Source: Chloroflexota bacterium
Lineage (GTDB): Bacteria > Chloroflexota > Dehalococcoidia > E44-bin15
Length of the DNA stretch: 37,373 nucleotides
NCBI GenBank assembly: GCA_034659515.1
Contig: JAYEHL010000184.1
Span: 1 to 37,373, forward strand
Direction: 5' to 3'
Under the pieces are notes generated by a model. That model made no database searches. It saw only the letters and a list, made by a program, of their open reading frames with translations, and had not been told where the DNA came from. This document shows, one piece after another, positions 8,122 through 34,139 of the stretch. The first letter of the stretch is position 1, and every line of letters begins with the position of its first letter. The position numbers were made by a program, and so were the translations under genes.

Positions 8122-8185
8122 AATACTTATCTCCGTCGATTAGCAGTCCGGAACGAAACGAAATATACTTAGGTAATAAACAACG

Positions 8186-9298: not shown

Positions 9299-10065
9299 TT
9301 TTTTAACTGTCTCACGGCATTATTAAAAATGCCACGGACGAAAAAGCTCCTGCTCTTCCCTTGCTGTCTGAGGATTTGCATGATGCCGATTTCAAAGTAG
9401 CTCGGGATTCGACCTTTCATCGGCTTGGTAGTCTTTTCAAGGATACTTCTGCGCAGGTCTGCTGCCGTGCGGCCTCTGAATAGTGTCAGACCGCTGCCCA
9501 CCGATATCAGGAAGTGGGCATCACTGCCGCCAGTTTCCGCCAGCTTATATTTCTCGTTGATCTTTCTCGCCTTGCGGTTGGATATTGTGCCCATGATAGT
9601 GGCATTGTACGTCTCTATGCCGTCGAAATAGACTGCGGGGTTCTCGCTACTGGTAATTTTCTCGATATCCTTGCGGTTTATGCTCTCGCTGAATGGGCTC
9701 ATTGGATGCGGCGCGATACACAGGCCTCCCTGGGCGTGCACTGCGGATATGGTGTCCTCAAGGGATAACTTATTCGATATCGGACTCTCTACGAATAGCG
9801 CTAACAGGTGTCCGTCAAGGGTGTTGATCTCCATGCCGGTTACTACTTCGAATGGATAGTTGCGCTTGGCGGCGAGTTCCCTTGCTTCGTAGCTTCCTGA
9901 TAGCTCTGCGTGGTCGGTTATAGCAATTACATCAAGGTCGCCCATCTCCGCTACGTACGCCAGAATCTCTTCGACACTGGCCATTCCATCGCTTGCAGTG
10001 CTATGTATATGTATATCCGCCGCCCCATAGCCGTTCCTGTCACTTAAATCTTGTGGAGGGTGCAT
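9295..10065 (-). CDS. PHP-domain metal-dependent phosphoesterase
   Basis: DIHIHSTASDGMASVEEIL...VIAITDHAE and C-terminal GGSDAH are PHP metal-ligand motifs. The stop overlaps the pimA-like start by 4 nt. Confidence 0.8.
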   Translation of the reverse strand: MHPPQDLSDRNGYGAADIHIHSTASDGMASVEEILAYVAEMGDLDVIAITDHAELSGSYEARELAAKRNYPFEVVTGMEINTLDGHLLALFVESPISNKLSLEDTISAVHAQGGLCIAPHPMSPFSESINRKDIEKITSSENPAVYFDGIETYNATIMGTISNRKARKINEKYKLAETGGSDAHFLISVGSGLTLFRGRTAADLRRSILEKTTKPMKGRIPSYFEIGIMQILRQQGKSRSFFVRGIFNNAVRQLKK

Positions 10066-10131
10066 TCTATACTGCCTCTATTCCCTCCCCCTAATATAGT
10101 GGCGCAGAAGACGTTTCTCATATTAACGTAA

Positions 10132-11208
10132 TTATTGGTTGTCCCCGGAGATAAAATCTTCAGTAAACTTCCGAGCTTCGTCGTCCTTATATTGTACAGG
10201 GGGTGATTTCATAAAGTATGAGGAGGGTCTGATTAGCGGCCCGGAGACGCCGCGATCCATTGCTATCTTGCAGCATCTTATCGCATCTACTACAACTCCG
10301 GCCGAGTTAGGACTGTCCCATACCTCTAATTTCAGCTCTACATTGAGAGGTACGTCACCGAATGTACGCCCCTCCATTCGAATGTGGCAGAACTTCCTAT
10401 CATCAAGCCACGGAACGTAGTCGCTCGGTCCGACGTGTATGTCTTTCTCGGATACTTTGTAATCCAGCTGTGAAGTTACAGCGTTGGTCTTCGATATCTT
10501 CTTGGACTCAAGGCGCTCCCGCTCCAGCATGTTGAGGAAGTCGGTGTTACCACCGAAATTGAGCTGGTAGGTTCTCTCCAGTTTGACGCCTCGCTCCCTG
10601 AAAAGGTTGGTGAGGATGCGATGAACTATGGTGGCGCCGACCTGGCTCTTTACATCGTCGCCGATTATCGACAGGCCGCGTTCCTTGAATCGTTCCTGCC
10701 AGTATTTCTCTCGCGCGATGAATACGGGTATACAGTTCACCAGGCTGCAGTCGGCGGTGAGCACCTGCTCAATGTACCATTTGGTGGCCTCTTCACTGCC
10801 GACGGGAAGGTAGTTAATCACGACATCGGTCTTGGTCGACTTTAGTATCTCAACGATATTAGCCGTAGGGCCCGGTGCCTTGGTTATTATCTCGGAGAGG
10901 TATTTGCCTAGGCCGTCGTGCGTCATGCCGCGCTCCACCTTAACGCCGGTTCGCGGTACCTGACAGAATTTATGAGTATTATTCGGAGTGGTGAATATAG
11001 CTGTAGCCAGATCCTTGCCAACCTTGTTCTTATCGACATCGAAGGCGGCGACGAATTCGATGTCGCTTATGTGGTAGCCCCCCAGGTTGACGTGCATCAG
11101 CCCCGGGATTTGCTCGTCTTCTCTGGCGTTCTTATAATAGTAGACTCCCTGTACTAGGGAGGACGCACAATTCCCAACACCGATTATGGCTACGTTTATC
11201 TTGCCCAA
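10132..11208 (-). CDS. ino1: myo-inositol-1-phosphate synthase
   Basis: TTG start with AGGAG 6 nt upstream. The N-terminal NAD-binding motif [21 protein letters not shown], the length (358 aa) and the downstream motifs are typical of bacterial/archaeal MIPS. Confidence 0.92.
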
Positions 11209-15604: not shown

Positions 15605-17287
15605 TTAATCCGGGCCGGCTACCTCGTTAGCGGTCTCGATCGACCCCTTTTTATCCTTCGTTTTCCCCTTGACATTCTTTTTAACCTTCTTGGCGGGCTT
15701 GCTGGCCGCCTCTATCAAGATATCGTCCCTGAGGGCGATGTCGATTTCCTCTTCGGGCGGCAGCTCTCTTTCGATGGGAAGCGCCAGATCCAATTCAGCC
15801 TCATCGATGCGGATATCCGCCGCTCGCCGGACCTTCGGCTTGGGAGAAGCTTTCGCTGTCTCTTCCTCCTTCGCCTTACCCTTACCTTTCTTGCCCTTTT
15901 TAGCGGGCTTTGGCACGCGGCTGGGGAGTAGTATATCCTCGGCGAAGCGTATGACCGGCATATGCGGCTCCGTGGGCTGCGGTGCCTCTTTTACTTTTTC
16001 GTACGGGGAAGCGAATTCCTCCGGCGCGGGCACGGCGAGCTCTTCCTCGACCGGCTCTACCACGTCGATAATCTCCATCGCCTCATCCGGCGCGGCCTCC
16101 TCCGCCTCCGCGAACGTCTGTAACTCTTCGGCCTCTCCTGGCTCTTCGAACTCGACTTCCTCGAATGCCTCGGGAACCGCTATCTCCTCGGCAGTCTCCT
16201 CTATTTCGTCCGTTGCCGTTTTTTCCGTTGCTTGTTTCTCCGCCTCCGCTACAGATGTGCTCTTGATGTCTATCCGCCACCCTGTGAGCTTGGCCGCAAG
16301 CCTAGCGTTCTGTCCCTCCCTGCCGATGGCCAGCGATAGTTGGCGGTCGGGCACTACTACTACGGCGACATTTTCGTCAGTGTTTATAGCAACGTTTTCC
16401 ACCTGCGCCGGGCTGAGGGCATTGGCGATGAACAGTGCCGGGTCGGCATCCCACTCCACAACGTCTATCTTCTCTCCGCTGAGTTCATTGACGATATTCT
16501 GTATCCTAATTCCGCGTAGTCCCACGCACGAGCCTATGGGGTCTATGCCCTCCTGGCGTGCGGCTACGGCGACCTTGCTCCTCTGTCCCGCCTCCCTGGC
16601 GATGGACTTAAGCTCTATGGCGCCCTGGTGTATCTCCGGCACCTCGAGTTCAAGCAACCTTCTGAGGAGATTGTGGTGCGTACGGGATACGACGATTTGA
16701 GGGCCCTTGGCGGTGCGATGTACTCCCAGGATGTAGACCTTGACCCGCTGGCCGGAGCGGTAATGCTCCATGCGCACCTGCTCGGTGGAGGGAAGTATGC
16801 CCTCGGTCCTGCCGAGGTCGAGGGTGATCTGTCTGGGCTCGATGCGCTGCACTATGCCGGTAACGATCTCGTTCTCGCGGTCGGAGAATTCCTCGAATAC
16901 GATCTCCCGCTCCGCCTCGCGCAGGCGCTGCAGTACCACCTGTTTGGCCGTCTGCGCTGCTATACGCCCAGCGTTCTGTGGGGTGGCCTCCACCATTATC
17001 TCTTCGTTGAGCTGGGCGTACTTATTTATCCTGCGCGCATCCTCCAGCGATATCTCGCGGGTGGGGCTGGTAGCCTCTTCCACCACCAGCAGTCCGGCGA
17101 ACACGGAGACCTGTCCTGTCTCCGGGTTGAGTTTGGCGGAGACGCTCTGGTTGGGTGCGAAGTTGTTCTTTCGGAACGCCGATGCCAAAGCGCTCTCGAC
17201 TGCCTCGAGCACTACCTCTTTAGGCAGATTCTTCTCTGCAGCCAGCTGGGTGATGGCGAGCATGAATTCGCTCTTGGTCTTACCCAA
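15605..17287 (-). CDS. nusA: transcription termination/antitermination factor NusA with ~215-aa acidic/lysine-rich C-terminal tail
   Basis: TTG start (CAA 17285-17287) with AGGAGGG upstream. NTD, S1 and two KH domains ([19 protein letters not shown]; [23 protein letters not shown]). The tail begins around aa 345. Confidence 0.93.
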
Positions 17288-17537: not shown

Positions 17538-19238
17538 CTATTTCGGGAGGAGTATGTCGCGCAATTTTTCGACAACGCCTTCGAGGGGCATGATCGTCGA
17601 TTCCTTCTCGTGCCGCAGCTTAACCTCGACGCTCGTGTTCTTGAGCGTTCTCGGGCTGACTACAACTCTTATGGGCATTCCCAGCAGGTCGGCGTCGTTG
17701 AGCTTGACGCCGGGTGACTCGACTCGATCATCGTACAGGACATCGATTCCGGCGGCGGAGAGATCGGCGTATAGTTTATCGGCGGTCTCAATAACATCCT
17801 CGTTGTCGGTCGACAGCGGACAGAGGTATGCCTGGTAGGGGGCTATCGGCGCGGGCCAGATAATGCCCTTCTCATCGTTGTTTTGCTCTATGGCGGCGGC
17901 CAGCAGCCTGCCGATGCCGATGCCGTAGCAGCCCATGATGACGGGGTGGGATGCGCCCTCGCGGTCGAGGAAGTTGGCCCCCATGCGCTCGCTGAAGAAG
18001 GTGCCCAGCTTGAACACGTGCCCCACTTCGATGCCCTTGACGGCATTCAGCGTTGCGCCGCATTTCGGGCAGCCCTCGCCCGCCCTGGCGGTGGCGATGT
18101 CGATCAACAGGTCGACCTCGAAGTCGCGCGGGTAGTTTACGTTCTTTACGTGTGCACCGGCCTTGTTGGCTCCGGCGACGAAGTTGGCTCCCATCGTTAT
18201 CGATTGATCGGCGACGCGTTTTATGCCCTGCAGCCCTATCGGCGAGGCGTATCCGGCCACCAGACCGGTGGCGGCGACCTCCTCCCCGGTGGCAAGACGC
18301 AGCTCGTGGCAGCCGATGGCGTTCTTCAACTTGACCTCGTTGACCTCTATGTCGCCGCGTATGGATACGTATATGACTGCGCCGTCGCAGGAGTATAACA
18401 CCGCCTTGAGTGTCTTGCCCGGCGGTACGGAGAGGAAGTTCGCCACCTCCTCGATGGTTTTCATCCCCGGCGTGGCTATCTCCTCCATCGGCAGCGGTTC
18501 ACTCGAGTCGTTCTTATGCTTGACGCTCTCCGCCCGCTCGACGTTGGCGGTGTAGTTGCAGGAAGGGCAGTTGATGATAACATCCTCGCCGCTGTCGGCG
18601 ACGACCATGAACTCGTGGGATTCCTTGCCGCCGATAGCGCCGCTGTCGGCCTCGGCGATGAGGAATTGCAGGCCGCAGCGCTCGTATATCCGTTTGTACG
18701 CTTCGATCACTTTGCTATAAGTCGAGTTGAGCGATTCGGCGTCGGCGTCGAAGCTGTACATGTCCTTCATGCCGAATTCGCGCACGCGCAGCAGTCCCCC
18801 TCTAGGGCGAGGCTCGTCGCGGAACTTGGTCTGTATCTGATACAGCATAAGCGGCAGGTCGCGGTAGCTTTGTACGTTGTGCCTCACCAAATCGGTGATG
18901 ATCTCCTCGTGCGTTGGGCCCAGCACCAGCGTGCGCTCGCGACGGTCGTTCAGCGTGAACATCGTCTTGCCGAAGGCGAGGTTGCGCTCGGTATCGACCC
19001 ACATCTCGTAGGGCTGGAGCACCGGCATTTGCAGCTCCTGCGCTCCGATGGCGTTAAGCTCATCGCGCATGATGTTCTCGATCTTTTGGATGGCTCGCAG
19101 GCACACCGGCATGTAGCTGTACACGCCCGATGCCAGCTGCTGGATCATGCCGGCCTTGAGCAGGAGCTGGTGGCTGATGTTCTCCGCCTCCGCCGGTGTT
19201 TGCCTGAGCGTCTTGCCGAATAACTGCGATACTTTCAT
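17538..19238 (-). CDS. proS: proline--tRNA ligase (bacterial type with INS editing domain)
   Basis: Class II motifs (RPRGGLLRVREFGMKDMYSF; GCYGIGIGRL), a central insertion domain and a C-terminal anticodon-binding domain. 566 aa. Confidence 0.95.
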   Translation of the reverse strand: MKVSQLFGKTLRQTPAEAENISHQLLLKAGMIQQLASGVYSYMPVCLRAIQKIENIMRDELNAIGAQELQMPVLQPYEMWVDTERNLAFGKTMFTLNDRRERTLVLGPTHEEIITDLVRHNVQSYRDLPLMLYQIQTKFRDEPRPRGGLLRVREFGMKDMYSFDADAESLNSTYSKVIEAYKRIYERCGLQFLIAEADSGAIGGKESHEFMVVADSGEDVIINCPSCNYTANVERAESVKHKNDSSEPLPMEEIATPGMKTIEEVANFLSVPPGKTLKAVLYSCDGAVIYVSIRGDIEVNEVKLKNAIGCHELRLATGEEVAATGLVAGYASPIGLQGIKRVADQSITMGANFVAGANKAGAHVKNVNYPRDFEVDLLIDIATARAGEGCPKCGATLNAVKGIEVGHVFKLGTFFSERMGANFLDREGASHPVIMGCYGIGIGRLLAAAIEQNNDEKGIIWPAPIAPYQAYLCPLSTDNEDVIETADKLYADLSAAGIDVLYDDRVESPGVKLNDADLLGMPIRVVVSPRTLKNTSVEVKLRHEKESTIMPLEGVVEKLRDILLPK

Positions 19239-19250
19239 TGTCCGGTCCTT

Positions 19251-19409
19251 CTACTTTTCGTCCGTGCCGATTTCCCGTTTTGCGGGCAGTGTCGTTGGAA
19301 TGTTGTAGATGATGATCGCGATCAGCACGACGAGCGCGCCGATGGGCAGCGCCGCCAGCGCTATTATTATTTTAATGAGGCTGAGCGGTAATTTAAACAG
19401 GGTTTTCAT
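19251..19409 (-). CDS. hypothetical 52-aa single-pass membrane peptide
   Basis: Hand translation gives MKTLFKLPLSLIKIIIALAALPIGALVVLIAIIIYNIPTTLPAKREIGTDEK. The stop lies 12 nt upstream of the proS ATG. No clear SD. Below the ORF-track cutoff. Confidence 0.35.
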   Translation of the reverse strand: MKTLFKLPLSLIKIIIALAALPIGALVVLIAIIIYNIPTTLPAKREIGTDEK

Positions 19410-19487
19410 CATAAGTCAACTGCTATTTAGATTATATACTATCTTATTATGTTTCTGATCAATGTTACAGAGATTATACACTTGTCT

Positions 19488-20321
19488 CTATGAAAAATAA
19501 CGTTTAGATATTCCAGTTTTTCTTTCGCCGAGGCTTAGCTCGGCAACTGCATCATCAATTGCTCTCAAAATCTTTATTATCGTATTACATAGGTATGTTA
19601 GCTCAGAAACATCTGCTTTCTTTGAAGATTCGTCCTTTGGTTTGTAGCCATGCCTGTACATTTCCATTTTGGCCATGCAACGGCCCAATGCGTGTTGGAA
19701 ATGATTAAAAATGCGAATGACTGGTCTCAAGTCATCCAATGTGCCTTGATGATATAACATTTCTCTTGACATATTTTGAGTAAATTGATCTATGCCAAAT
19801 ATCGAAGGGTAAAAAGAGAACACGTCGAATTTATCTATATCGATTAAATCTAATCTAAGCGCTTCATTTTTCAGAATGTTTAGAAATTCATCAAAGTTAT
19901 CGTGTGTCTTGCAGATTCTAAAAAAGAGGGCTTCTCGTGTAGGGTTTGGTTGCTTAAAGTAGTTCGCAAAATCAAGAGCGATGGCTTGTATTAAAAATGT
20001 GAGTTGAAATGACATTTCATCAAGGATTTCTTTTTGAATGTCTCTTCGGCGTTCTCTCTCCTTGCGGTCTCTTTCGCGCCTATAGCGGTCGACGAAGAAA
20101 TAGGCAATACCGAGGGTTAAAAACGCGCCAATAATGGATGCGACAAGGCTTTCTTTAAAAGTATTACTCAAATATACACTGGGTAGCACTAATAGTAATA
20201 TGGATGCGACGACAAATGAAATGAATAAAAGAACCCCTTTCTTATCTTTAGGAGTTTTATCTCCTGAGACCTTGCAAACTCTTTGAATAATGGTTTTTTT
20301 CTTTTGTGGTTTTTCTGCCAT
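19488..20321 (-). CDS. hypothetical protein: N-terminal 2-TM hairpin, R/E-rich linker, helical domain of unknown family
   Basis: ATG 20321 with AAGGTGG upstream. TM1 is LLFISFVVASILLLVLPSVYL and TM2 is LVASIIGAFLTLGIAYFFV, followed by RYRRERDRKERERRRD. The gene is strongly AT-rich compared with its neighbours. Confidence 0.6.
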   Translation of the reverse strand: MAEKPQKKKTIIQRVCKVSGDKTPKDKKGVLLFISFVVASILLLVLPSVYLSNTFKESLVASIIGAFLTLGIAYFFVDRYRRERDRKERERRRDIQKEILDEMSFQLTFLIQAIALDFANYFKQPNPTREALFFRICKTHDNFDEFLNILKNEALRLDLIDIDKFDVFSFYPSIFGIDQFTQNMSREMLYHQGTLDDLRPVIRIFNHFQHALGRCMAKMEMYRHGYKPKDESSKKADVSELTYLCNTIIKILRAIDDAVAELSLGERKTGISKRYFS

Positions 20322-20395
20322 CAGCCACCTTTATAGCTTTGCATAACTCTGGGCCGTCCGGTAAAGCCGGATGATGACGTTGGGTCAATTCGCTG

Positions 20396-20600
20396 TAATC
20401 CCCCTTAGTCCCCCTTTGAGAAAGGGGGATTTTAAGGTTCTCTTCGTAGGGGCGTCTGATCGGCCAACTAGCCTGAATAGGGTGAGACGAATCTCGCCTC
20501 TACATCTCAACGTCCCTTGCGGCTTCGGCGCTTCCCCCTCTTTGCCAAAGAGGGGGTTAGGGGGAGTTCGATAACCCGTCATCGCCCGGATTGATCGGGC
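20396..20600. repeat. mosaic hairpin repeat, composite copy A (module 1 at 20396-20439, module 2 at 20531-20570, module 3 at 20580-20600)
   Basis: Module 1 is TAATCCCCCTTAGTCCCCCTTTGaGAAAGGGGGA-TTTTAAGGTT. Module 2 is CTTCCCCCTCTTTGcCAAAGAGGGGGTTAGGGGGAGTTCG, an 11-bp perfect stem. Module 3 is CATCGCCCGgATTGATCGGGC. All three recur at 24019-24241. Confidence 0.85.
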
Positions 20601-20608
20601 GCTCCGGT

Positions 20609-21193
20609 TCATAACCGCTTGCGCTGCTTCACAACCTGCTGCCAGAACTCGTGCTCGGTATCGAGCATCCGTTCAATGTAACTGTCGTCTCGCGCTACGC
20701 TGATATGAACCTCCGGGAGGTTCGGCAGATAGCACCAGAACTCGATTACTTGCAGCTCGGTAACGGCCAGGATGTGCTGCAGCTGACCGAAGTAATACTT
20801 CGGCACTTTTTTAGTAGCCGAAGATTTGCGATACACGCTCTCCCCGCACTTGATCTCCACCACCGCGCTTCCGTCGGTCGCCAATCCGTCTACGCTGGCC
20901 CGCAGCCATTCATACTTTGTGCTTTGCAGGCAGGCGGCTGCCACACGAACGCCGAACTTGCTCTCGTAACGTTTTCGCGCCTCCGGCTCAAGCCTGGTGC
21001 CGCGAGCCATAGCGGCGTTGGGGCCGTACACTTTCCCCTCGCACTTCTCTTGCAGCAGATAGTTCGCGCTCTTCCAGGGGTTCTCGCCCATGATCGCAGG
21101 GGCGTCGGATGCGCCTATGCCCTGGCTGCGCCATTCGAGCCAGGCGGGCGTGCCTTGCCGGAGGTTTACGATTGTGTAAGGTGTGTTATTCAT
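20609..21193 (-). CDS. YqaJ-like viral-recombinase-type exonuclease (PD-(D/E)XK)
   Basis: GTPAWLEWRSQGIGASDAPAIMG, GTRLEPEARKRYE and SVDGL....VVEIKC match the YqaJ / lambda-exonuclease-like layout. 194 aa. Confidence 0.75.
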   Translation of the reverse strand: MNNTPYTIVNLRQGTPAWLEWRSQGIGASDAPAIMGENPWKSANYLLQEKCEGKVYGPNAAMARGTRLEPEARKRYESKFGVRVAAACLQSTKYEWLRASVDGLATDGSAVVEIKCGESVYRKSSATKKVPKYYFGQLQHILAVTELQVIEFWCYLPNLPEVHISVARDDSYIERMLDTEHEFWQQVVKQRKRL

Positions 21194-21220
21194 GTCGTTT
21201 TTCTAGCCTACCATAATCGC

Positions 21221-21272
21221 CATCGCCCGACGAATTGATCGGGCAATCCAGGGGGCGGCTTTCAAAGCCGCC
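21221..21272. repeat. hairpin repeat, module 3 plus ATCCAG-hairpin module
   Basis: CATCGCCCGACGAATTGATCGGGCAATCCAGGGGGCGGCTTTCAAAGCCGCC. It shares CATCGCCCGA..TTGATCGGGC(AATCCAG) with 20580-20600 and 24193-24241, and ends in a 9-bp hairpin GGCGGCTTT/AAAGCCGCC. Confidence 0.8.
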
Positions 21273-21299
21273 GCGGTTTTAAAACTCAGGTTCATCCTC

Positions 21300-23477
21300 T
21301 TATCCCTGTTCGCTCAGGACATGGTTGACCTCGTAATTCTTCGTTACGATAAAATTCGCTTCACTCTTCGATTTTTGGATAATACGATGTTCTATCTCCA
21401 ATACTTTCAGGATGAATTGAAAGTCTTGACCAGGGTCGCGGTTGAAGTTTCTTTCTTTTATTTCATTTATTCTGCTTTGGTAATCCGATTCCAAAAAGAT
21501 TTTCAAAGACGCATTTTTCAAAAGCATGCTATAGGTAAGATCGACAAAGACGATTTCCGTGGTCGTGAGGTCGACTGGCACATTTTCATACTTTTTCGAT
21601 TCTAATCGCCTGCAGTCGGAGGGAATAAAGACTTCCCGAGTTTCCTTTTTTATAGCGCGATCCAGAATCAAATCTAGTTGTTCTAGATTTATCTCTGAAG
21701 GCCCCAGGCATTGGCTAAGTTTGTTCTCACCGTAAGCTTTAAGTCGCTTCTTGTGGTTCTCTGCCGGTGTCAGCTTAAAAAATACATCTCCTGCTATCGT
21801 TGTCCCCCAAAAATTTTGCCTTCTCAACAGATACCGCAGATATTCCGCGATTTCGGTCTTACCCACCCCTGACTCGCCTCCGAGAGCAGCTATGACCCGC
21901 TCTTTTCTATATCGTGCCTTCTTGATTTCTTCAACGATGTACGGAAGCAGCTCCTCCGCCGCTTTTTTATGGCGTGGTTTTATGTGGGGGGGATCTCCTC
22001 GCCAGGTAAAAGTCGATCGATGGTAGGATCGGTGAATCCTTCTTCCAGAAATGGATTCCATTGTTCCGTGAGGAGATTTTCCTTGGCAAAGTAAATCTAC
22101 GATTTCTCCCTGTTTATGTCCTATAGCTTCCCAGTTAAATTCACTTCGGGCTAGCCTATAACCATCTGACGCCAGTTGATTCAGTCGTGTCTTACGGTTC
22201 AATATCATGATCAGCCTTTGCGCGGCGTTGTGAGGATCGTTCGGATCCACAACAATCGCCTCTTTCTCATCGGTGATCCATCTTGTAACGCCCGCGGCTT
22301 TTGAGACCATGACCGGTGCGCGAGCCGCCATTGCCTCCACCACACCCATGCCGAAAGGTTCCATCATTTGCATTCCGATGTAGAACAGACAGTGATGAAC
22401 GAGAACGGCTAAAATCTCCCAGGGTTGACTGGGCAGCCTTACCACCTCATTTTCCGATAATTCGTAATCTTTCATTACTGCAATAATATTGTTTTCGATA
22501 TTGATTTCTTCAAGCGGTGGCTTTTCTTGAGATCCTCCCACAAGAACAAGTTTAAGCCCTTTCATAAGCTGAGGAGCCAGCCGACATGCTTCGCCGAAGA
22601 CCTTCACGACTCCGGGAACATTCTTTGCCTCTGAGAAACGACCGAAATAAATAAAATATTTTCGGGGTGTCAGATTGTATCTATTCAATAAATCCGTTCG
22701 AGGATTTTTGTGTGCGTTAAAAAAATCATTTCCCGCGCCGGCAGGCATGACGAGATGCGGGAATTCACGTTTATAGTATTCTTTCAAAATAGCAGGTTCT
22801 TGCCATGAGTTCGCTATTTCAAAATTTGCTCCTTTGAGAGCCGCCATTTCAAAGCTTTCTCTTGTTCCAAAATTATACTCTTCGCCGAGCCATGTTTCAG
22901 GGTCGTAGGGGTCATATCCGAGAGATATCACTTTATTGATACCAAGCGAATGTGGAATTGCGATAGTTGGTATTTGAAGCCTTTCGCCTATTTCAAGAGC
23001 TATAGTCATACCGTCCGCATAGTGACCTACAACCGCATGTGCGCCAAAGAGAGCTGAAACGGCGACGGCCTTTTCCGCCAGCTCCGGAACAAGAGGGTAT
23101 ATCTCTTCCTTACGTACGAATTCATCGCTACCTGCAGGGATGCGTACAAGCCATAGGTTTTTTGCAAAGGATTCTACGATTGGGTATGGTTTGAACCATC
23201 TCGCTAAAATGATCACCTTTCTTCCCTGCGAGGCCCATGTTCTCGCTACTTCCAGCACATAATACGTTTGCCCCCCCGTATCAGGCACTCCGGCAGGCGG
23301 CGGGTTGTCCCAGTAACCATGCGTGGAGACCATCACGATGCGATTTGCACGTTTGGGAATTCTTTTTCTCAAGAAGGTAGGAATGCGGTATTTTTGAAAG
23401 GTATCATAATATTCTTGCAGGAGATTTGGTGCCAGGTCATATTTTAAAGCCTGATTTTTAAGTTTTTGATCGCTCAA
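21300..23477 (-). CDS. fusion protein: sucrose-phosphate-synthase-like GT4 glycosyltransferase (about aa 45-465) plus uridine-kinase/PRK-like P-loop domain (about aa 505-725)
   Basis: N-terminus: VSTHGYWDNPPPAGVPDTGGQTYYVLEVARTWA (the DTGGQ box of the SPS/SuSy clade) and EPFGMGVVEAMAA (GT-B C-lobe). C-terminus: Walker A GGESGVGKT (nt 21855-21881), GDVFFK, VFVDLTYSML and FLESDYQSRINEIKERN, collinear with Udk as I recall it. The TTG start at 23477 is uncertain; the next Met is aa 49. Confidence 0.8.
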   Translation of the reverse strand: MSDQKLKNQALKYDLAPNLLQEYYDTFQKYRIPTFLRKRIPKRANRIVMVSTHGYWDNPPPAGVPDTGGQTYYVLEVARTWASQGRKVIILARWFKPYPIVESFAKNLWLVRIPAGSDEFVRKEEIYPLVPELAEKAVAVSALFGAHAVVGHYADGMTIALEIGERLQIPTIAIPHSLGINKVISLGYDPYDPETWLGEEYNFGTRESFEMAALKGANFEIANSWQEPAILKEYYKREFPHLVMPAGAGNDFFNAHKNPRTDLLNRYNLTPRKYFIYFGRFSEAKNVPGVVKVFGEACRLAPQLMKGLKLVLVGGSQEKPPLEEINIENNIIAVMKDYELSENEVVRLPSQPWEILAVLVHHCLFYIGMQMMEPFGMGVVEAMAARAPVMVSKAAGVTRWITDEKEAIVVDPNDPHNAAQRLIMILNRKTRLNQLASDGYRLARSEFNWEAIGHKQGEIVDLLCQGKSPHGTMESISGRRIHRSYHRSTFTWRGDPPHIKPRHKKAAEELLPYIVEEIKKARYRKERVIAALGGESGVGKTEIAEYLRYLLRRQNFWGTTIAGDVFFKLTPAENHKKRLKAYGENKLSQCLGPSEINLEQLDLILDRAIKKETREVFIPSDCRRLESKKYENVPVDLTTTEIVFVDLTYSMLLKNASLKIFLESDYQSRINEIKERNFNRDPGQDFQFILKVLEIEHRIIQKSKSEANFIVTKNYEVNHVLSEQG

Positions 23478-23690
23478 AATATAAATTCCCCTGTCACTAT
23501 TTAACCTTGCAGCAACGCTATCCTAACACTCGAAATCAGCGGCTCTTGAAGTGGCAAAACCGCGTGGAAAATCCGCTGCGTTAAGTGGTTAGGAGCTTTT
23601 AAAAAATTACACTTCGCTGGTTTTTATTGTAACACTTTCATCGTGGCTGGGATAAGAACACCCCTAATCCTTCCGATACCGGAATGACCG

Positions 23691-23709
23691 GCAGGAGAAT
23701 TTCTCCTGC
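23691..23709 (-). terminator. perfect 9-bp hairpin 20 nt downstream of the Smr gene stop (no U-tract)
   Basis: GCAGGAGAA-t-TTCTCCTGC as read on the + strand. On the - strand it is followed by CGGTCATTCC, so it is not a canonical intrinsic terminator. Confidence 0.25.
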
Positions 23710-23728
23710 ACCGCTTTTCCAGCAGTCT

Positions 23729-23983
23729 CTAAAATCTGAAGTGAACGAAAATCCTTCCGAAATTCTTGTCGTCTTTCTCCAGCCGATGGTATTGTTTCTT
23801 TATCTCCGGCTTCATTAGAAATCGCAAAACATGCTTTTTCAATTGTCCGCTTCCCTTGCCGGGAATAATCTCCACTAAGGCGATCTTCTTTTCCACCGCC
23901 TCCGCGATAACCCTGTTTAGCTCCGCGTCGATGGCGAGACCCCTGTTATAGATATCGTGCAGGTCCAGTTTGATTTTTGCCAT
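23729..23983 (-). CDS. small Smr-domain protein
   Basis: 84 aa: KLDLHD...A...L...I.......ALVEIIPGKGSGQLKKHVLRFL follows the Smr pattern (LDLHG ... IIHGKGSG.L). Here HD replaces HG and IPGKG replaces IHGKG. AAGGA lies 8 nt upstream of the ATG. Confidence 0.65.
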   Translation of the reverse strand: MAKIKLDLHDIYNRGLAIDAELNRVIAEAVEKKIALVEIIPGKGSGQLKKHVLRFLMKPEIKKQYHRLEKDDKNFGRIFVHFRF

Positions 23984-24018
23984 TGAAGATTTCCTTAGGG
24001 TTCAACCCCCTGTGATCC

Positions 24019-24241
24019 TAATCCCCCTTAGTCCCCCTTTGCGAAAGGGGGAGTTTTAAGGTTAGGGGACACCCCTAAAACCCCGGTCCTTCCAATTCTG
24101 GAAGGACACCGCTGCTTCAACGCCCCCTGTCCTTCCGCGGAAGGACTTCCCCCTCTTTGTCAAAGAGGGGGTTAGGGGGAGTTCGTGTTCCTCATTGCCC
24201 GACTTGATCAGGCAATCCAGAGGGCGAATTGCAATTCGCTC
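24019..24241. repeat. mosaic hairpin repeat, composite copy B (module 1 at 24019-24063, module 2 at 24146-24185, module 3 plus ATCCAG-hairpin at 24193-24241)
   Basis: Same orientation as copy A. Module 1 differs by 1 substitution and 1 indel; module 2 matches at 39/40. The centre is unrelated and carries its own hairpins: GTCCTTCCA-attc-TGGAAGGAC (24086-24107) and the palindrome GTCCTTCCGCGGAAGGAC (24129-24146). Confidence 0.85.
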
Positions 24242-24244
24242 TTA

Positions 24245-24643
24245 CTAAAGCGAATCCAGGTGTATTTCCGGGTCTTCTTCTACTTCCGCGTACCACGGCT
24301 CGGGGTCTATGTCCTGAAGCGCGGTGGCGGCCGCTCGCCGCACCAGCGTGTCGTTGTCATCGAGCGCCTCGGTGAGCGCGGGGATCGCCGCCTCGACGAT
24401 ATCTTTGTGGCTGATCCCGATCTTGCCGATGGCGCCCGCGGCTGCGGAGCGCGTCATCGAATCCCAGTGCTTGAGCGCATCGATAAGGGCCGGGATCGCC
24501 CCGGCGGCGTCGGGGCCGAGTTTTGATAGTGCATTGGCGGCTGCGTAGCGTAGCGAGTTGTTCTTGCTTTTTAGCGCCCCGGTAAGGCCCTCGATGTTCC
24601 GGCTGGCGGCTAGTTCGCCGATATTCGTTTTGAGTTTGCTCAT
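24245..24643 (-). CDS. small HEAT-repeat (PBS-lyase-type) protein
   Basis: 132 aa with three or four repeats of the R..AA.ALG.IG...A...L...L.D type (LRYAAANALSKLGPDAAGAIPALIDAL; TRSAAAGAIGKIG; LVRRAAATALQDI). Confidence 0.7.
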   Translation of the reverse strand: MSKLKTNIGELAASRNIEGLTGALKSKNNSLRYAAANALSKLGPDAAGAIPALIDALKHWDSMTRSAAAGAIGKIGISHKDIVEAAIPALTEALDDNDTLVRRAAATALQDIDPEPWYAEVEEDPEIHLDSL

Positions 24644-24682
24644 GTTATTGCCGTTCTTTCAGTATGTGAGTATTCTCAGTCG

Positions 24683-24710
24683 ATCCAGAGGGCGAATCGC
24701 AATTCGCCCC
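24683..24710. repeat. ATCCAG-hairpin module, solo copy
   Basis: ATCCAGAGGGCGAATCGCAATTCGCCCC. Compare AATCCAGAGGGCGAATTGCAATTCGC at 24214-24239 and AATCCAGGGGGCGGC... at 21245. Lies between the HEAT gene start and the ispG stop. Confidence 0.75.
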
Positions 24711-24719
24711 TACCTCTAT

Positions 24720-25766
24720 TTAAAATTTCTCGACCTCCGCCATCAGCGCGTCGAGGAAATCGGGCTCGTCGACTATCCGCACCTGTTTACCGTTGCGGAA
24801 GAGAATGCCTTTTCCCTTTCCGCAGGCGATGCCTACATCGGCATGTTTCGCTTCTCCAGGACCGTTGACCACGCAGCCCATCACTGCTACTCTGAGCGGC
24901 TTTTCCACCCGCGCCATGCGTCTTTCCACAGCGTTTGCGAGGGATATAATATCGACCTCGACTCGTCCGCACGTGGGACAGCTCACCAGCGTCGGGCCGT
25001 GCCGGCTGAGATCGAGCGACTTCAGTATCTCGTATCCGGCGGTCACCTCCTCGCGGGGGTCGCCGGTCAGCGATACGCGTATCGTGTCGCCGATGCCCTC
25101 CCACAGCAGGATGCCGATGCCGACGGCGCTGCGGATAGCGCCGCGTTTGGGCGTGCCCGCCTCGGTGATGCCGATGTGGATGGGGTAGGGCATGCGCTTC
25201 GCCAGCAATCGATTGGCCTCGATGGTATCGAGCACGTCGAACGCCTTGAGCGAGACTTTAATCAGATCGAAGTCGAGGCTCTCCAGCAGGTCGATCTCGC
25301 CCATCGCGGCGTCCACCATGCGCTCGACGGTCGTCTTCGTCGCATCGCTTGCCGGTGGCAGGCTCCCCGCGTTGACGCCGATGCGTATCGGTATGTCGCG
25401 CTCCTTCGCTGCCAGCACGACGCGCTTGATATGGGCGGGGTCGGATATGTTCCCCGGGTTTAGCCGCAGCCCGTCGGCGCCAGCATCGATCGATTGGAGG
25501 GCGAGGCGATGGTCGAAATGTATATCGGCGATGAGGGGAATGTTTATCGCCTTCCTGATCGCCGACAGCGCATCGGCGGCCTCGGTATCGGGCACGGCTA
25601 CGCGCACCAGCTGGCAGCCGCATCGCTCGAGTTTTTTTATCTGCCGGATCGTCGCCTTCGAATCGCGTGTATCCGTCTTGGCCATCGACTGGACTATGAT
25701 CGGCGCGCCGCCACCGACGGTGACATCGCCGATGTGTATAGGTCGGGAGTTGCGGCGACGGATCAT
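24720..25766 (-). CDS. ispG: 4-hydroxy-3-methylbut-2-enyl diphosphate synthase (GcpE)
   Basis: The real start is the internal ATG 25766, an ATGA overlap with the rseP stop. MIRRRNSRPIHIGDVTVGGGAPIIVQSMAKTDT; cluster cysteines in SCPTCGR and GCVVNGPGE. Confidence 0.95.
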   Translation of the reverse strand: MIRRRNSRPIHIGDVTVGGGAPIIVQSMAKTDTRDSKATIRQIKKLERCGCQLVRVAVPDTEAADALSAIRKAINIPLIADIHFDHRLALQSIDAGADGLRLNPGNISDPAHIKRVVLAAKERDIPIRIGVNAGSLPPASDATKTTVERMVDAAMGEIDLLESLDFDLIKVSLKAFDVLDTIEANRLLAKRMPYPIHIGITEAGTPKRGAIRSAVGIGILLWEGIGDTIRVSLTGDPREEVTAGYEILKSLDLSRHGPTLVSCPTCGRVEVDIISLANAVERRMARVEKPLRVAVMGCVVNGPGEAKHADVGIACGKGKGILFRNGKQVRIVDEPDFLDALMAEVEKF

Positions 25767-27100
25767 CTCAGGAAACCTTCCCCGCTGATTAGTCGTGCAA
25801 TATCGTTGTAGCTTATAACTACGAAAAGCATCATCAGAAGCGCGAATCCGACGAGGTGCACCATTCCTTCCTTTTTCGCCGATATCCGCTTCCCTTTGCG
25901 GATACATTCGAGAACAACGAAGACGAGTCTTCCTCCGTCCAGTGCCGGGACCGGCAGCAGGTTCATTATGCCCAGGATTATGCTGATGAGCGCTGCGAAC
26001 TCGAACAGCGCCGTCGCGCCGCCTATAGCGGTCACTTCATTTGTGAGCTGGGCGATGCCTATGGGTCCGGCGATGGCGTCCTTGGCCGGTACATCGCCGG
26101 AGAACAGCATGCCGAATGAATCCTTTATGCCCACGTAAATCGAGCCGCATTCGGCAAAACCCTTGGGTATGGCTTCCCAGGGGGGATACGCGATTTTTGC
26201 ATATGTACCGGGGGCGGATATAATACCCAGCGCTCCCTGTCCTTGAGGTATCTCCTCTTTAGTTCTGGGAACGATAGTGACCTCTAATTGCGAGCCTTCC
26301 CGCGATATGAGGAGTGTGACCTCCTGCCCGGCCTTCGCTGCTGTAATTTCGTTCAATTCGCCGGGGGTATCCACCTGCTCGCCATCGACGGCAAGGATTA
26401 CATCGTTTACCTTTAGACTTGCATTGGCGGCCGGGGAGTCCTCGCTGACGTTGCCGATCATGAGGCCCATATTGTGCGCCACTATACCCAGCGGACTTTC
26501 TCCCTCCGGTATTTCACTCGCTGCGGGTACTACCGGAACATCGAATTGCGAGCCGTTGCGTGATACCAGCAACGTGATCTCCTGCCCGGCCTTCATGTCT
26601 ATGATTTTATTCAACTGGTCGGGGGTAAATACCTGCTCTCCGTCGACACTCACTATGATATCGTTTATTTCGAGTCCGGCTGCCGCGGCCGCTGATCCGT
26701 CGATCACATTCGTAATGCGGGGGGCGTCATCCACCGGACGGTCGAGCGGCAGCATGTAGGATAGCGGCAGGAGCCAGAGGGGGAACAGGAGCATAAATAC
26801 CGATCCGGCGCTGAGGACAATGAGCCTGACCTTGGGACTCTTGCTCGCCAGGCTGTCCGGCACGTCCGGGTCCTCCTCGCCAGCCATCTTGCAGAAGCCG
26901 CCCAGCGGTATCCAGTTGAGCGACCATATCGTGCCCCACTTCTCGAAATGAAGGTGGCGGATGCGCGGCGGCAGTCCGATGCCGAACTCCTCCACTTTTA
27001 TCTTGGCGAGCTTGGCCGTGATATAGTGTCCCGCCTCGTGTACAATGACAAGCACCGTGAGTATGGCGAGAAATATAACGATCGATATAAAGATACTCAT
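25763..27100 (-). CDS. rseP: RIP site-2 zinc metalloprotease RseP/RasP with two PDZ domains
   Basis: The real start is ATG 27100, an ATGA overlap with the dxr stop. HEAGHY in TM1, two tandem PDZ-like repeats (...LEINDIIVSVDGEQV... / ...LKVNDVILAVDGEQV...) and NLLPVPALDGG. Confidence 0.9.
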   Translation of the reverse strand: MSIFISIVIFLAILTVLVIVHEAGHYITAKLAKIKVEEFGIGLPPRIRHLHFEKWGTIWSLNWIPLGGFCKMAGEEDPDVPDSLASKSPKVRLIVLSAGSVFMLLFPLWLLPLSYMLPLDRPVDDAPRITNVIDGSAAAAAGLEINDIIVSVDGEQVFTPDQLNKIIDMKAGQEITLLVSRNGSQFDVPVVPAASEIPEGESPLGIVAHNMGLMIGNVSEDSPAANASLKVNDVILAVDGEQVDTPGELNEITAAKAGQEVTLLISREGSQLEVTIVPRTKEEIPQGQGALGIISAPGTYAKIAYPPWEAIPKGFAECGSIYVGIKDSFGMLFSGDVPAKDAIAGPIGIAQLTNEVTAIGGATALFEFAALISIILGIMNLLPVPALDGGRLVFVVLECIRKGKRISAKKEGMVHLVGFALLMMLFVVISYNDIARLISGEGFLR

Positions 27101-31574: not shown

Positions 31575-32591
31575 TTACGCCTCGTCCTTCGGCTCAGAAT
31601 TATTAACCTGGTCTTCCTTAACATCAACATCGGGGGCCGCTTGGCCCTCGTCTTTAGCTTCCGTTTTGGCTGGCTCCTCGATCACCTGCTCGCTCTCGGA
31701 TGTCGGTCCGGCGGCAACTATGGCCTCGGTTTCAGCCTCGGGCTCCTCGGTTGCCTCCTGGTTTGCCGCCGCCAGTTCACCCGGAGTTGTAAACTCTCCC
31801 TCGGGTGTGAAGCTTAATACTTCGTGTACCGCTTCTTCTTCGTATACCATGGCGGCAAGCTCACGGGCCTCGCGCCCCTCTGCGGCGGCGCTTGCTATGC
31901 AGCTGCATATCAGCCTTACCGCTCTAACCGCGTCGTCATTTGCCGGTATCGGATAGTCGATCTCATCGGGGTTGCAGTTGGTATCCACTACGGCCACTAT
32001 GGGTATGCCTTTACGTCTGGCCTCGGTGACCGCAATCCGCTCTTTGGCGGGATCGATGATGAAGACCGCTCCGGGGAACCTGGTCATCTCCTTGAAGCCG
32101 CCCATTTGCCTGTTGAGCCGCTCGATCTCCTTGGATAGTTTCAGCCCTTCCTTTTTAGGCAGAACGCCGAGCTGGCCTCTGACCTTCCGGTCCTCCAGCC
32201 GCACCAGATAGTCTATCCGCGACTGGATTGTATCGAAGTTAGTGAGCATTCCGCCGAGCCAGCGCTGGTTAACGTAGTGCATGCCGCAACGTTTGGCTTC
32301 CTCCTCGATTGACTCCTTCGCCTGTTTTTTCGTTCCCACGAAGACTATGTCTTCGCCTTTGGCGACAAGATCCTTGACGAAGTCACAGGCCTTGTGTAGC
32401 AGTGCAGACGTTTGCTCGAGATCGATTATGTGTATGCCGTTCCTGGCGGTGAATATATATCTCGCCATTCGCGGGTTCCAGCGACTGGTCTGATGACCAA
32501 AGTGAGCACCCGCCGCCAACAGCGACTTGATCGATACCTCTTCCGGTCCAGCTTTTACCTCGGGTTTTACCTCGATCCTTCCCTCTTCCAT
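31575..32591 (-). CDS. rpsB: 30S ribosomal protein S2 with ~90-aa acidic C-terminal extension
   Basis: LLAAGAHFGHQTSRWNPRM, HIIDLEQT and VDTNCNPDEIDYPIPANDDA. 338 aa. Confidence 0.93.
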   Translation of the reverse strand: MEEGRIEVKPEVKAGPEEVSIKSLLAAGAHFGHQTSRWNPRMARYIFTARNGIHIIDLEQTSALLHKACDFVKDLVAKGEDIVFVGTKKQAKESIEEEAKRCGMHYVNQRWLGGMLTNFDTIQSRIDYLVRLEDRKVRGQLGVLPKKEGLKLSKEIERLNRQMGGFKEMTRFPGAVFIIDPAKERIAVTEARRKGIPIVAVVDTNCNPDEIDYPIPANDDAVRAVRLICSCIASAAAEGREARELAAMVYEEEAVHEVLSFTPEGEFTTPGELAAANQEATEEPEAETEAIVAAGPTSESEQVIEEPAKTEAKDEGQAAPDVDVKEDQVNNSEPKDEA

Positions 32592-32636
32592 GGTCCCCCT
32601 TTATGTTGGTTCTGTATGCATAAAACAGCAGAGCAT

Positions 32637-32665
32637 AGTATATCATAGCGTAGGTGGCAAGGCAA
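32637..32665 (-). promoter_or_regulatory. putative rpsB promoter (TTGCCT-17 nt-TGaTATACT, extended -10)
   Basis: The - strand reads TTGCCT (32665-32660), a 17-nt spacer ending in TGA, then TATACT (32642-32637), about 45 nt upstream of the rpsB ATG. Confidence 0.45.
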
Positions 32666-32668
32666 TAT

Positions 32669-34002
32669 CGCGTATTCACTCACTTAAAATGTTACCGGAG
32701 ATGGTATGGTTCACTCAGATAAAAATGTTACTGAGGAGGGCCATGCCGAGCGATGAAAGAATGACAATAGACGAGAGACGTAAGTACCTGAAGCTGATAG
32801 CGCGGAGGTATGCCGCGGCTAAGCGGAGGGAGCGAAGCGAGTTACTGACAGAAATGTCAGTAGTGACGGGGTTACATCGTAAGAGCCTGATACGGCTGAT
32901 GGGCATGCCAAGTCTGGAGCGTGCACCGAAGAGTCCCAGGTTTAGGAGAAGGAAGTATGGGACATCCATAGAGGGTGTGGTCAGGATGATCTGGGAGAGT
33001 CTGGACTATGTGTGCGCCGAAAGGCTGACCCCGGTGCTCCTGGATACGGGTCGGCAGCTAGCGGAGTGGGAGGAGTTGGTACTGACGCCGGAGGTGGAAA
33101 GCGCTCTCTCTACTATCAGCCGTTCCACAGTACAGCGGCTACTGGAGCGCATTCAACAGGATACTCCGAAGCTGCCCCGGCGCAGGCCTCAGCCGCCTAA
33201 CCGGCTATTGCGGGAAGTGCCCATGGAGCGGTTGTCCTGGGACACCAGCGTCCCGGGCAGCTTTGAAGTCGACCTGGTCCATCACTGCGGGCCGATATCT
33301 GCGGGCGATTACATACATACCCTGCAACTGGTGGACATCGCTACAGGGTGGAGCGAACGGGTAGCGGTGCTGGGACGCAGTCAGGAAGCTATGGTGAGAG
33401 GCTTCATAAAGGTGCGGGAGAGATTGCCTTTCCCCATCAAGCATCTGCATCCTGACAATGGCAGTGAATTCTTCAATGACCACCTCATCCGCTACTTCGG
33501 CGAGAAGATCACAGGTCTGCGCCTGAGCCGCAGCCGTCCCTACCGGAAGAACGACAACCGGTTCGTGGAGCAGAAGAACAGCACCCTGGTACGGGCATAT
33601 CTCGGATATGAGCGGTTGGATAATGGCGCTCAGTGCGCTGCCCTCAATGCCCTTTACGACCAGCTCTGGGTATACTACAACATGTTTCAGCCCGTGATGC
33701 ACATGGTAGACAAGGAATTGGTAGATGACAAGCTCCGCCGGAAGCACGACAGGGCGAAGACGCCATACCAGCGTCTCCTGGCCTGCAAGGTACTTCTCCC
33801 TGAACAGGAAGCGAGACTAGCCATTCTCTACGCTAAGACAAACCCTCGCCAGTTACGTAGGCAAATCTATACGGCAGTTCAACAACTCTGGGCATACCCT
33901 CAGGCCGATACATCCACCAGAAAGGAGGCGGCATTATCCCGGTAACATCCCTAAATGAATGAACAACCTCTGTTCGGTAACAATATTGTATGAGTTGACG
34001 CG
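32669..34002 (+). mobile_element. single-ORF insertion sequence with nested inverted terminal/subterminal motifs (exact termini uncertain)
   Basis: Four copies of a motif ending TGTTACC, preceded about 7-10 nt upstream by CTCA/TTCA. Two lie on the left in forward orientation (32675-32698, 32710-32734). Two lie on the right inverted (33939-33963, 33975-33994). The outer pair extends to CGCGT (32669-32673) and ACGCG (33998-34002). The element encloses the rve-type transposase gene. No target-site duplication was found. Confidence 0.55.
32743..33945 (+). CDS. DDE transposase with integrase-core (rve) catalytic domain (IS481/ISNCY-like; family not resolved)
   Basis: ATG 32743 preceded by GAGGAGG (32733-32739). 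N-terminal HTH region (ERRKYLKLIARRY...VTGLHRKSLIRLM). Candidate DDE residues in FEVDLVHH, HPDNGSEFFN and RPYRKNDNRFVEQKNSTLVR. Confidence 0.85.
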   Translation: MPSDERMTIDERRKYLKLIARRYAAAKRRERSELLTEMSVVTGLHRKSLIRLMGMPSLERAPKSPRFRRRKYGTSIEGVVRMIWESLDYVCAERLTPVLLDTGRQLAEWEELVLTPEVESALSTISRSTVQRLLERIQQDTPKLPRRRPQPPNRLLREVPMERLSWDTSVPGSFEVDLVHHCGPISAGDYIHTLQLVDIATGWSERVAVLGRSQEAMVRGFIKVRERLPFPIKHLHPDNGSEFFNDHLIRYFGEKITGLRLSRSRPYRKNDNRFVEQKNSTLVRAYLGYERLDNGAQCAALNALYDQLWVYYNMFQPVMHMVDKELVDDKLRRKHDRAKTPYQRLLACKVLLPEQEARLAILYAKTNPRQLRRQIYTAVQQLWAYPQADTSTRKEAALSR

Positions 34003-34047: not shown

Positions 34048-34139
34048 GGAGGGATCGCATAGTGGTCTAGTGCGGCCGCCTGCTAAGCGGTTACCCTGAG
34101 TGATCGGGGTCGAGGGTTCGAATCCCTCTCCCTCCGCCA
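34048..34139 (+). tRNA. tRNA-Ser(GCU), class II with long variable arm, CCA encoded
   Basis: Hand fold. Acceptor GGAGGGA/TCCCTCC. Anticodon stem GCCGC/GCGGT with loop CU-GCU-AA. A 19-nt variable region (TACCCTGAGTGATCGGGGT). T arm GAGGG-TTCGAAT-CCCTC. Discriminator G, then CCA. Confidence 0.9.

Follow-up and report, generated by a model that had tools for sequence, protein, structure and literature searches.

Our results make it probable that the interval between ispG and proS in a member of the Dehalococcoidia is a long-lived hotspot of horizontal gene transfer, a variable islet of this class that has no mobile element of its own. The sequence analyzed (here called the window) is a complete NCBI contig of 37,373 nucleotides (nt) from a metagenome-assembled genome (MAG); it carries the label Chloroflexota, and the class Dehalococcoidia was assigned via ProS. 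Four observations carry this reading: the interval is layered, two of its genes have a foreign composition, the interval varies across the class, and two strains of a sister species are polymorphic within it, with clustered single-nucleotide polymorphisms (SNPs). The genes concerned are as follows (aa, amino acids; TM, transmembrane).

ispG (GcpE), 24720 to 25766, minus strand: core gene, upstream flank (PF04551, 2e-140).
HEAT, 24245 to 24643, minus strand: HEAT-repeat protein of 132 aa (HEAT_2, 3.5e-19).
Smr, 23729 to 23983, minus strand: Smr-domain protein of 84 aa (PF01713, 8e-14).
GT-kinase, 21300 to 23477, minus strand: fusion of a sucrose-phosphate-synthase-like GT4 glycosyltransferase with a uridine-kinase/PRK-like P-loop domain (Pfam, NCBIfam).
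YqaJ, 20609 to 21193, minus strand: nuclease of the YqaJ/lambda-exonuclease family (PF09588, 1.4e-30; TIGR03033, 2e-38; phrog_434, 2e-45).
TM277, 19488 to 20321, minus strand: membrane-anchored all-helical protein of 277 aa, a near-orphan.
p53, 19251 to 19412, minus strand: small open reading frame (ORF) of 53 aa with a single TM segment, directly upstream of proS and conserved in the clade.
proS, 17538 to 19238, minus strand: core gene, downstream flank (Pfam tRNA-synt_2b, tRNA_edit, HGTP_anticodon), present in 160 related loci.

An initial annotation of this DNA had found six ORFs between ispG and proS, and these are present with the identities that it gave, except that the small peptide has 53 aa and not 52. 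Its phrase "hotspot that accumulated cassettes" is a good description of this layering. Its picture of a single foreign block of 5.5 kb made of six unrelated ORFs has to be abandoned: four of the ORFs are resident in the clade and have the same order in the sister loci L085 and L087. The first layer is HEAT, which lies beside ispG in relatives down to ~70% ProS identity. The second consists of Smr, YqaJ, and p53, which are common to the clade with 76 to 78% ProS identity, the nearest relatives of the window among the related loci. The third comprises two recent single-gene acquisitions, GT-kinase and TM277, which are found in this genome only, each in a spacer between resident genes and co-oriented with them.

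The older layers are defined by conservation of sequence and position. In L085 and L087 (ProS identity, 77 to 78%), the backbone is ispG-HEAT-Smr-YqaJ-(cargo)-p53-proS; L001, L086, and L088 show the YqaJ-p53-proS part, to which L001 adds Smr. Orthologs of HEAT are 66 to 70% identical in L085 and L087 and 43% identical in L008 and L090, two loci with 70% ProS identity that have HEAT alone at this position, and they are adjacent to ispG every time. HEAT, the oldest resident of the interval, has a G+C content at third codon positions (GC3) of 0.75 and native codon usage. Smr, whose composition is intermediate, has orthologs of 86 to 87% identity in L001, L085, and L087. YqaJ has kept its position in L001 and L085 to L088, with 72 to 82% identity; judged by its overall G+C content (GC) of 0.58, its composition is native. 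A p53 homolog of 52 aa occupies the equivalent position in L001, L085, and L087, and throughout the clade (L001 and L085 to L088) the ORF of 52 to 53 aa stops 9 to 12 nt ahead of proS. It has a GC3 of 0.70 and native codon usage, and family and profile searches gave no family match. Taken together, the alignments indicate that HEAT, Smr, YqaJ, and p53 are resident genes of the clade. The initial annotation had considered that close relatives might all carry the same six ORFs with no compositional deviation; the four backbone genes are indeed shared, whereas GT-kinase and TM277 are absent from the sister genomes and deviate in composition.

Two further observations concern p53. In the sister genomes, a conserved CCATAGAAAT...TATAAT motif precedes the ORF and looks like a candidate p53 promoter. 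The idea that p53 is a truncated form of DUF4389, a family found upstream of proS in other lineages, was dropped when no alignment was obtained.

The third layer stands out by composition. The interval has a GC of 0.476, compared with 0.558 for the remaining window, and the values of its parts differ widely (TM277, 0.37; YqaJ, 0.58; GT-kinase, 0.45; Smr, 0.46; HEAT, 0.62; flanks, ~0.60). The mosaic composition reported in the initial annotation is borne out by the GC profile and by the codon usage of the interval genes, and its three hand counts (19/60, 24/60, and 38/60) were exact on recount. Codon usage was scored relative to core genes (log-likelihood, +0.095; standard deviation [SD], 0.065; GC3, ~0.7). 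Judged by alignment and composition, only the following two segments are both genome specific and foreign in composition.

Segment 1, ~19410 to 20613, between YqaJ and p53: TM277 and the repeat element R2.
Segment 2, ~21245 to 23729, between Smr and YqaJ: GT-kinase and a 250-nt upstream region.

Nucleotide homology with L001 ends at 20614 and picks up at 19409, with ~90 nt of L001 replaced by segment 1; likewise, it ends at 23730 and picks up at 21244, with a spacer of ~112 nt in L001 replaced by segment 2. The Smr-YqaJ spacer measures 128 to 207 nt in L085, L087, and L001. GT-kinase has a GC3 of 0.44 and a codon log-likelihood 3.4 SD below the core. Its closest named homologs (71% aa identity) are from the Thermodesulfobacteriota, Syntrophales, and Syntrophobacterales, and the homolog search gave no other match labeled Chloroflexota. 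The closest homolog overall (L083; 78% aa and 81.5% nt identity) lies among unrelated neighbors on a low-GC contig, and the DNA similarity is confined to the coding sequence and ends where the latter ends. Elsewhere, homologs are stand-alone genes in varied housekeeping contexts, and the family with the same GT4 and P-loop fusion counts more than 500 proteins. These data point to horizontal acquisition of GT-kinase from a lower-GC donor outside the Chloroflexota. The nearest Protein Data Bank entries are sucrose-phosphate synthase structures (6kih and 2r60), and from its domains we read the protein as a self-contained enzyme of the sugar-phosphate or compatible-solute type.

TM277 deviates even further (GC, 0.37; GC3, 0.36; codon log-likelihood, -0.24, 5 SD below the core). 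No homolog besides itself was found in a word-indexed set of 5.8 billion proteins, and 1.84 billion representatives included two relatives, with 33 to 34% identity. An AlphaFold2 (AF2) model displays two TM helices and a helical bundle (pLDDT, 76), for which Foldseek gave no Protein Data Bank match below an E value of 0.2. TM277 is a near-orphan that was recently acquired.

The same distribution could in principle result from differential loss, with all six genes present in the ancestor of the clade and GT-kinase and TM277 lost from the sisters. The direct repeats R1 and R2 (described below), or other palindromic units, would make a deletion between them mechanistically easy, and sister genomes do gain or lose genes at the same spots. 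Nevertheless, the two genes are strong outliers in GC3 and codon usage (3.4 to 5 SD) and the residents are not, GT-kinase matches DNA of an unrelated contig of low GC and its named relatives belong to another phylum, and both genes are missing from all five sister loci. We therefore regard differential loss as very unlikely.

The interval is variable well beyond this clade. The survey covered 160 related loci, taken from GTDB species representatives and from JGI metagenomes; 113 of these have ispG directly upstream of proS and on the same strand. This adjacency is a conserved arrangement of the Dehalococcoidia and hence ancestral, as the initial annotation had supposed. The gap in the 113 loci ranges from 8 to 4,632 nt (median, 604 nt), with some as small as 8 to 32 nt; that of the window, at 5,481 nt, is larger than any of them. 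The ORFs in the gaps run mostly in the direction of the flanks (112, versus 20 in the opposite direction), and among 84 gaps of at least 300 nt, GC is below that of the flanks in 99%, with a mean difference of 8.3 points. Alignment across relatives, a check proposed in the initial annotation, found the interval empty in some and filled with other cargo in others, including the following.

DUF4389: 16 loci of the first 80.
Pentapeptide-repeat/ion-channel protein: 13 loci.
HNH endonucleases, free-standing: L021:9182-9802 and L011:6981-7784.
PIN protein, free-standing: L012:9452-9970.
MFS transporter: L011.
ABC transporter genes and DUF1028: L048.
HEAT protein: L008 and L090.

As a separate observation, nucleases (HNH and PIN, and Smr and YqaJ in the window) seem to be over-represented among the gap residents.

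Turnover can be followed most closely at one spot, which extends from the YqaJ stop codon to ~65 nt upstream of p53. Its contents are as follows.

Window: TM277.
L085: ORF of 236 aa and PD-T7-5-like nuclease of 301 aa (GC, 0.37 to 0.40).
L087: an unrelated ORF of 365 aa.
L001, L086, and L088: empty, ~40 nt with a GC palindrome.

In the three empty loci, YqaJ is ~255 nt from proS. The low-GC protein of 301 aa (L085:8866-9771) matches PD-T7-5 (1e-13) and PD-T7-1, which are defense genes encoding PD-(D/E)xK nucleases (PMC10952713); its upstream partner of 236 aa has no family match. A second insertion, seen in L087 only, places a ParE-like toxin and a Phd/YefM antitoxin between ispG and HEAT (L087:6187-6721). 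A clean natural case is the pair L001 and L085, which are 99.4% identical over 11.9 kb and yet have 38 nt and 1,683 nt, respectively, at the YqaJ/p53 spot (L001:1036-1455 versus L085:8060-10120; a two-gene insertion of 1.68 kb). Of the 83 differences between them, 24 fall within 500 nt around the spot, where ~3 would be expected. We take this SNP cluster to be the trace left by an imported recombination tract. Between the window, L085, and L087, the ends of the cargo have no sequence in common, which argues against a site-specific mechanism.

The backbone spacers all fold into dense GC-rich stem-loops. The elements distinguished in the window are the following (no strand assigned).

24676 to 24713: hairpin module directly after the ispG stop codon, 87% identical to 24208-24245.
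24019 to 24245: R1, a composite palindromic element with a hairpin module in the HEAT/Smr spacer, composed as a mosaic of four or more palindromic units.
23499 to 23586: single imperfect palindrome of 88 nt upstream of GT-kinase, with RYYYAAC...GTTRRRY ends and an inner CCTAAC...GTTAGG.
21231 to 21276: hairpin module between GT-kinase and YqaJ, a GC stem-loop with a CTGGATTGCCCGATCAA...GGGCGA inverted repeat (family D1/D4).
20396 to 20605: R2, a composite palindromic element resembling REP doublets forming hairpins (REPINs) or miniature inverted-repeat transposable elements (MITEs), with ends that match R1 and a unique middle.

The ends of R1 (24019-24218) and R2 match over 45 nt (96%) and 70 nt (86%), and their middles differ; the two ends are also inverted repeats of each other (31 nt at 81%), and the longest exact match between R1 and R2 is 25 bases. 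Recurrent units are GTCCTTCC...GGAAGGAC, C5TCTTTG.CAAAGAG5, TC5TTTC.CAAAG5ACTAAG5, GCAGGAGAA.TTCTCCTGC, TTGCCnGATCAA..GGCAA, and G5ATA.AG5TTGA, and they reappear in spacers of the window, L001, L085, and L087 that are not orthologous to one another. The HEAT/Smr spacer of L087 is a mosaic related to R1, R1 units are also found in other spacers of L085 and L001, and upstream of YqaJ, L001 and L085 conserve the distal part of the 21231-21276 module. All copies in the window are in spacers of the interval, and in the clade, too, every repeat copy lies inside it (13 to 37 kb per genome examined). The initial annotation had placed hairpins between all gene blocks and had regarded them as confined to the interval. 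The first statement applies to four spacers; the TM277/p53 and p53/proS spacers have none, and the hairpins between Smr and GT-kinase are not repeated in the window. The second is accurate for the 37 kb, but related G5/C5 palindromes are present in other intergenic regions of the Dehalococcoidia. Class-wide, 67 related G5/C5 hairpin clusters lie outside the gap and 30 inside, an enrichment in the gap of 6.6-fold per kb and of 2.5-fold per non-coding kb. From these patterns, the palindromes would appear to be mosaics of the repetitive extragenic palindrome (REP) and bacterial interspersed mosaic element (BIME) kind, common in the class and enriched in the interval.

Searches for a conventional function of the repeats were negative. 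An Rfam scan of 19000-25000 at an E value of ≤1 gave no match, scans for consensus promoters and terminators showed no enrichment relative to shuffles, and the hairpins lack T-tails, so that they are not canonical intrinsic terminators. A scan of viral contigs with the end of the R elements gave 0 matches, and a protein search with a spurious ORF of 75 aa overlapping R2, an uninformative proxy for repeat copy number, yielded no candidates.

Assemblies break in these repeats, including unitigs built at k=31 and the end of L001. This raises the possibility of an assembly chimera in which low-GC pieces were misjoined into the MAG contig at repeats, and Logan unitigs from the same run do break in or near them (at ~24156, 24046, 20515-20544, and 19281-19308). 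However, unitig L082 spans Smr-GT-kinase-YqaJ unbroken with 100% identity, unitig L165 spans R2-TM277-p53, neighboring unitigs follow the window's order with overlaps of 28 to 30 nt (about k-1), the backbone order is identical in L085 and L087, and R1 and R2 have at most 25 exact bases in common. A chimera is extremely unlikely. Because the k=31 unitigs break although R1 and R2 share so short an exact stretch, there are hints that further copies of the repeats exist elsewhere in the genome.

No integrase, transposase, or recombinase was found in the 37-kb window by Pfam and NCBIfam scans of all its sizeable ORFs. Its sole tRNA gene, for tRNA-Ser, is at 34048, 9 kb from the interval, and the interval borders show no duplication. 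The locus is accordingly not a classical integrative island, as the initial annotation had noted; integrase, tRNA or tmRNA target, and flanking direct repeats are all missing. A decayed prophage or remnant of an integrative element, with YqaJ as a leftover recombination gene and the integrase lost, would fit the match of YqaJ to the RecE-like phage exonuclease family phrog_434, the low GC of the interval, and the Smr, HNH, and PIN nucleases in the gap of relatives. Against this, YqaJ is the sole convincing PHROGs match, no annealase partner, att duplication, or tRNA accompanies it, its composition is native, and its position is conserved across a clade with ~22% ProS divergence. The cargo also varies between genomes, unlike decaying copies of one element. 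Such an origin has a very low probability.

The hairpin modules could instead be the sites of a site-specific cassette array, similar to an integron or a cluster of attC sites lacking integron-integrases (CALIN), with the recombinase encoded elsewhere in the genome. The units are single genes, co-oriented and separated by hairpins; a similar module, made of a hairpin and CTGGAT, comes after the stop codons of ispG, HEAT, and GT-kinase; and one spacer was filled three times with different cargo. Several results contradict this explanation. Neither intI nor another recombinase is present in the 37 kb, the cargo ends have nothing in common, and palindromic units are shuffled among spacers and occur outside the interval in other genomes. 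The interval holds one RYYYAAC...GTTRRRY pair, compared with ~0.5 expected by chance, and this pair is upstream, not downstream, of a cassette; in a pattern test only, the candidate attC site at 23499-23586 was judged to be a chance occurrence. The difference between L001 and L085 carries an SNP recombination tract, which is not a clean site-specific junction. We consider a cassette array very unlikely. Each of the alternative explanations is contradicted by at least one test.

If the interval is a transfer hotspot, turnover among relatives would occur by double homologous recombination via the conserved flanks (ispG and proS) and the resident genes. Unrelated DNA may first have been captured through recombination of the illegitimate or homology-facilitated illegitimate type within the palindrome-rich spacers, and the two segments of the window would have entered by the route seen in the sister species. 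The palindromes would then be markers of permissive, recombination-prone non-coding DNA rather than specific recombinase sites. A more speculative possibility, to which we give little credence, is that palindrome mosaics and resident nucleases form an integrase-free gene-capture platform maintained at ispG/proS, in which the nickase domain of Smr and the 5'-3' exonuclease YqaJ would nick and resect the hairpin spacers and single foreign genes would be taken up in the orientation of transcription. If true, the platform would be a nursery for defense and orphan genes, integron-like in function and different in mechanism.

Several points weigh against the hotspot explanation. The search yielded no near-identical strain of the species to which the window belongs (best ProS identity, 78%), so that the recombination signature is seen in the sister pair only and not for the two insertions of the window. 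An exact-protein look-up in public assemblies returned sample SRR26901925 only and no population variants of the window strain. Neither microhomology nor target duplication was identified at the segment junctions. Three independent fillings of one spacer of ~40 nt within a small clade could reflect a targeted mechanism, and a recombinase encoded elsewhere in the genome is possible, the mobility scan having covered the 37-kb window. Finally, the genome and metagenome locus sets overlap partly, and the class-wide counts are not fully independent.

Around the interval, on the minus strand, one array consists of rpsB-tsf-pyrH-frr-uppS-cdsA-dxr-rseP (M50/PDZ)-ispG, and the array next to it consists of proS-nusA-ylxR (RnpM)-infB-rbfA-truB. 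Both are as initially annotated; the order is typical of the Dehalococcoidia, and its described likeness to Bacillus is an analogy only. The longest ispG ORF (24720-25907; 395 aa) overlaps rseP by 145 nt, and ispG orthologs (348 aa) and the Logan gene call begin at Met48 (25766), with an overlap of 4 nt; ispG probably starts at this codon and encodes 348 aa. Among the flanking genes, rpsB (31575-32591) encodes a long protein of 338 aa that partially matches the "sunset domain" S2 variant; NusA (15605-17287; 560 aa) has a long acidic and lysine-rich C-terminal tail; and tsf is short (173 aa). Pfam gave no match at 1e-5 for two sizeable candidate ORFs, at 32527-33945 (plus strand; 472 aa) and 36512-37132 (minus strand; 206 aa). 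The genes at 7465-11208 (minus strand) encode a CDP-alcohol phosphatidyltransferase, a GT4 glycosyltransferase, a PHP-domain protein, and myo-inositol-1-phosphate synthase, and the cluster looks like an inositol-phosphate/phosphatidylinositol-glycolipid pathway. Its GT4 matches the GT4-conflict Pfam model at 37 bits, which indicates that the model is not specific. A conflict role of GT-kinase based on this model was rejected, the match being below threshold and weaker than that of the native GT4 (8186-9298).

Dehalococcoidia have small, streamlined genomes, and their known plasticity resides mainly in large regions that surround the origin or lie at tmRNA/tRNA sites. The ispG-proS locus would represent a second, finer mode, a class-wide pocket between two essential genes in which single genes are swapped without a mobile element. 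Among the swapped genes are one for a nuclease with a candidate anti-phage role, those of a toxin and its antitoxin, one for an orphan membrane protein, and a sugar-metabolism gene of cross-phylum origin. This suggests that the locus is a practical place to find strain-specific adaptive or defense genes in uncultured Chloroflexota and a convenient marker for strain-level population genomics. The type of organization is already well documented in bacteria, and the interval is an ordinary feature of its kind. Its local interest lies in the class-wide persistence, the palindromic mosaics, the orphan membrane protein, and the cross-phylum glycosyltransferase-kinase. A literature search found no specific description of palindromic intergenic repeats in Dehalococcoides, and the mosaics of the interval appear to be undescribed for the Dehalococcoidia.

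Among known repeats, the mosaics resemble the REP/BIME and REPIN families of Proteobacteria. They are short, GC-rich, imperfect palindromes that are extragenic only, they combine several unit types and differ between orthologous spacers, and the composite elements of 170 to 200 nt in the window have inverted ends, as REPINs do. The sequences themselves, hairpins with G5/C5 runs, are unrelated to these families, and no REP-associated tyrosine transposase (RAYT; IS200/IS605-like) is encoded in the 37-kb window. With integrons and CALINs, the interval shares single genes that are co-oriented and each have an imperfect palindrome after them; as in a CALIN, an integrase is not present nearby. In contrast to them, its palindromes have no R''/R' boxes and do not occur one per cassette, its junctions are not conserved, and its resident genes are stably inherited in the clade.

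Defense islands are similar in that the interval is low in GC, turns over rapidly, and is rich in orphans, and sister loci carry the PD-T7-5/PD-T7-1-like PD-(D/E)xK nuclease (L085) and the ParE/Phd pair (L087). The interval of the window differs, as GT-kinase looks metabolic (sucrose-phosphate-synthase-like) and PADLOC gave no significant match in it, with weak generic HEAT and P-loop similarity only. The closest counterpart is the class of hotspots without mobile elements, with recombination elevated in the core genes on either side, described by Oliveira et al. (2017; PMC5635113). Like these, the interval is narrow, is bounded by syntenic core genes, holds variable strain-specific genes, and has no integrase or transposase, and the sister species shows elevated divergence flanking its polymorphic spot. 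Unlike them, it has internal sub-spots between residents and dense palindromic repeats, recombination at its flanks is known from one strain pair only, and it persists across a class and not only within a species.

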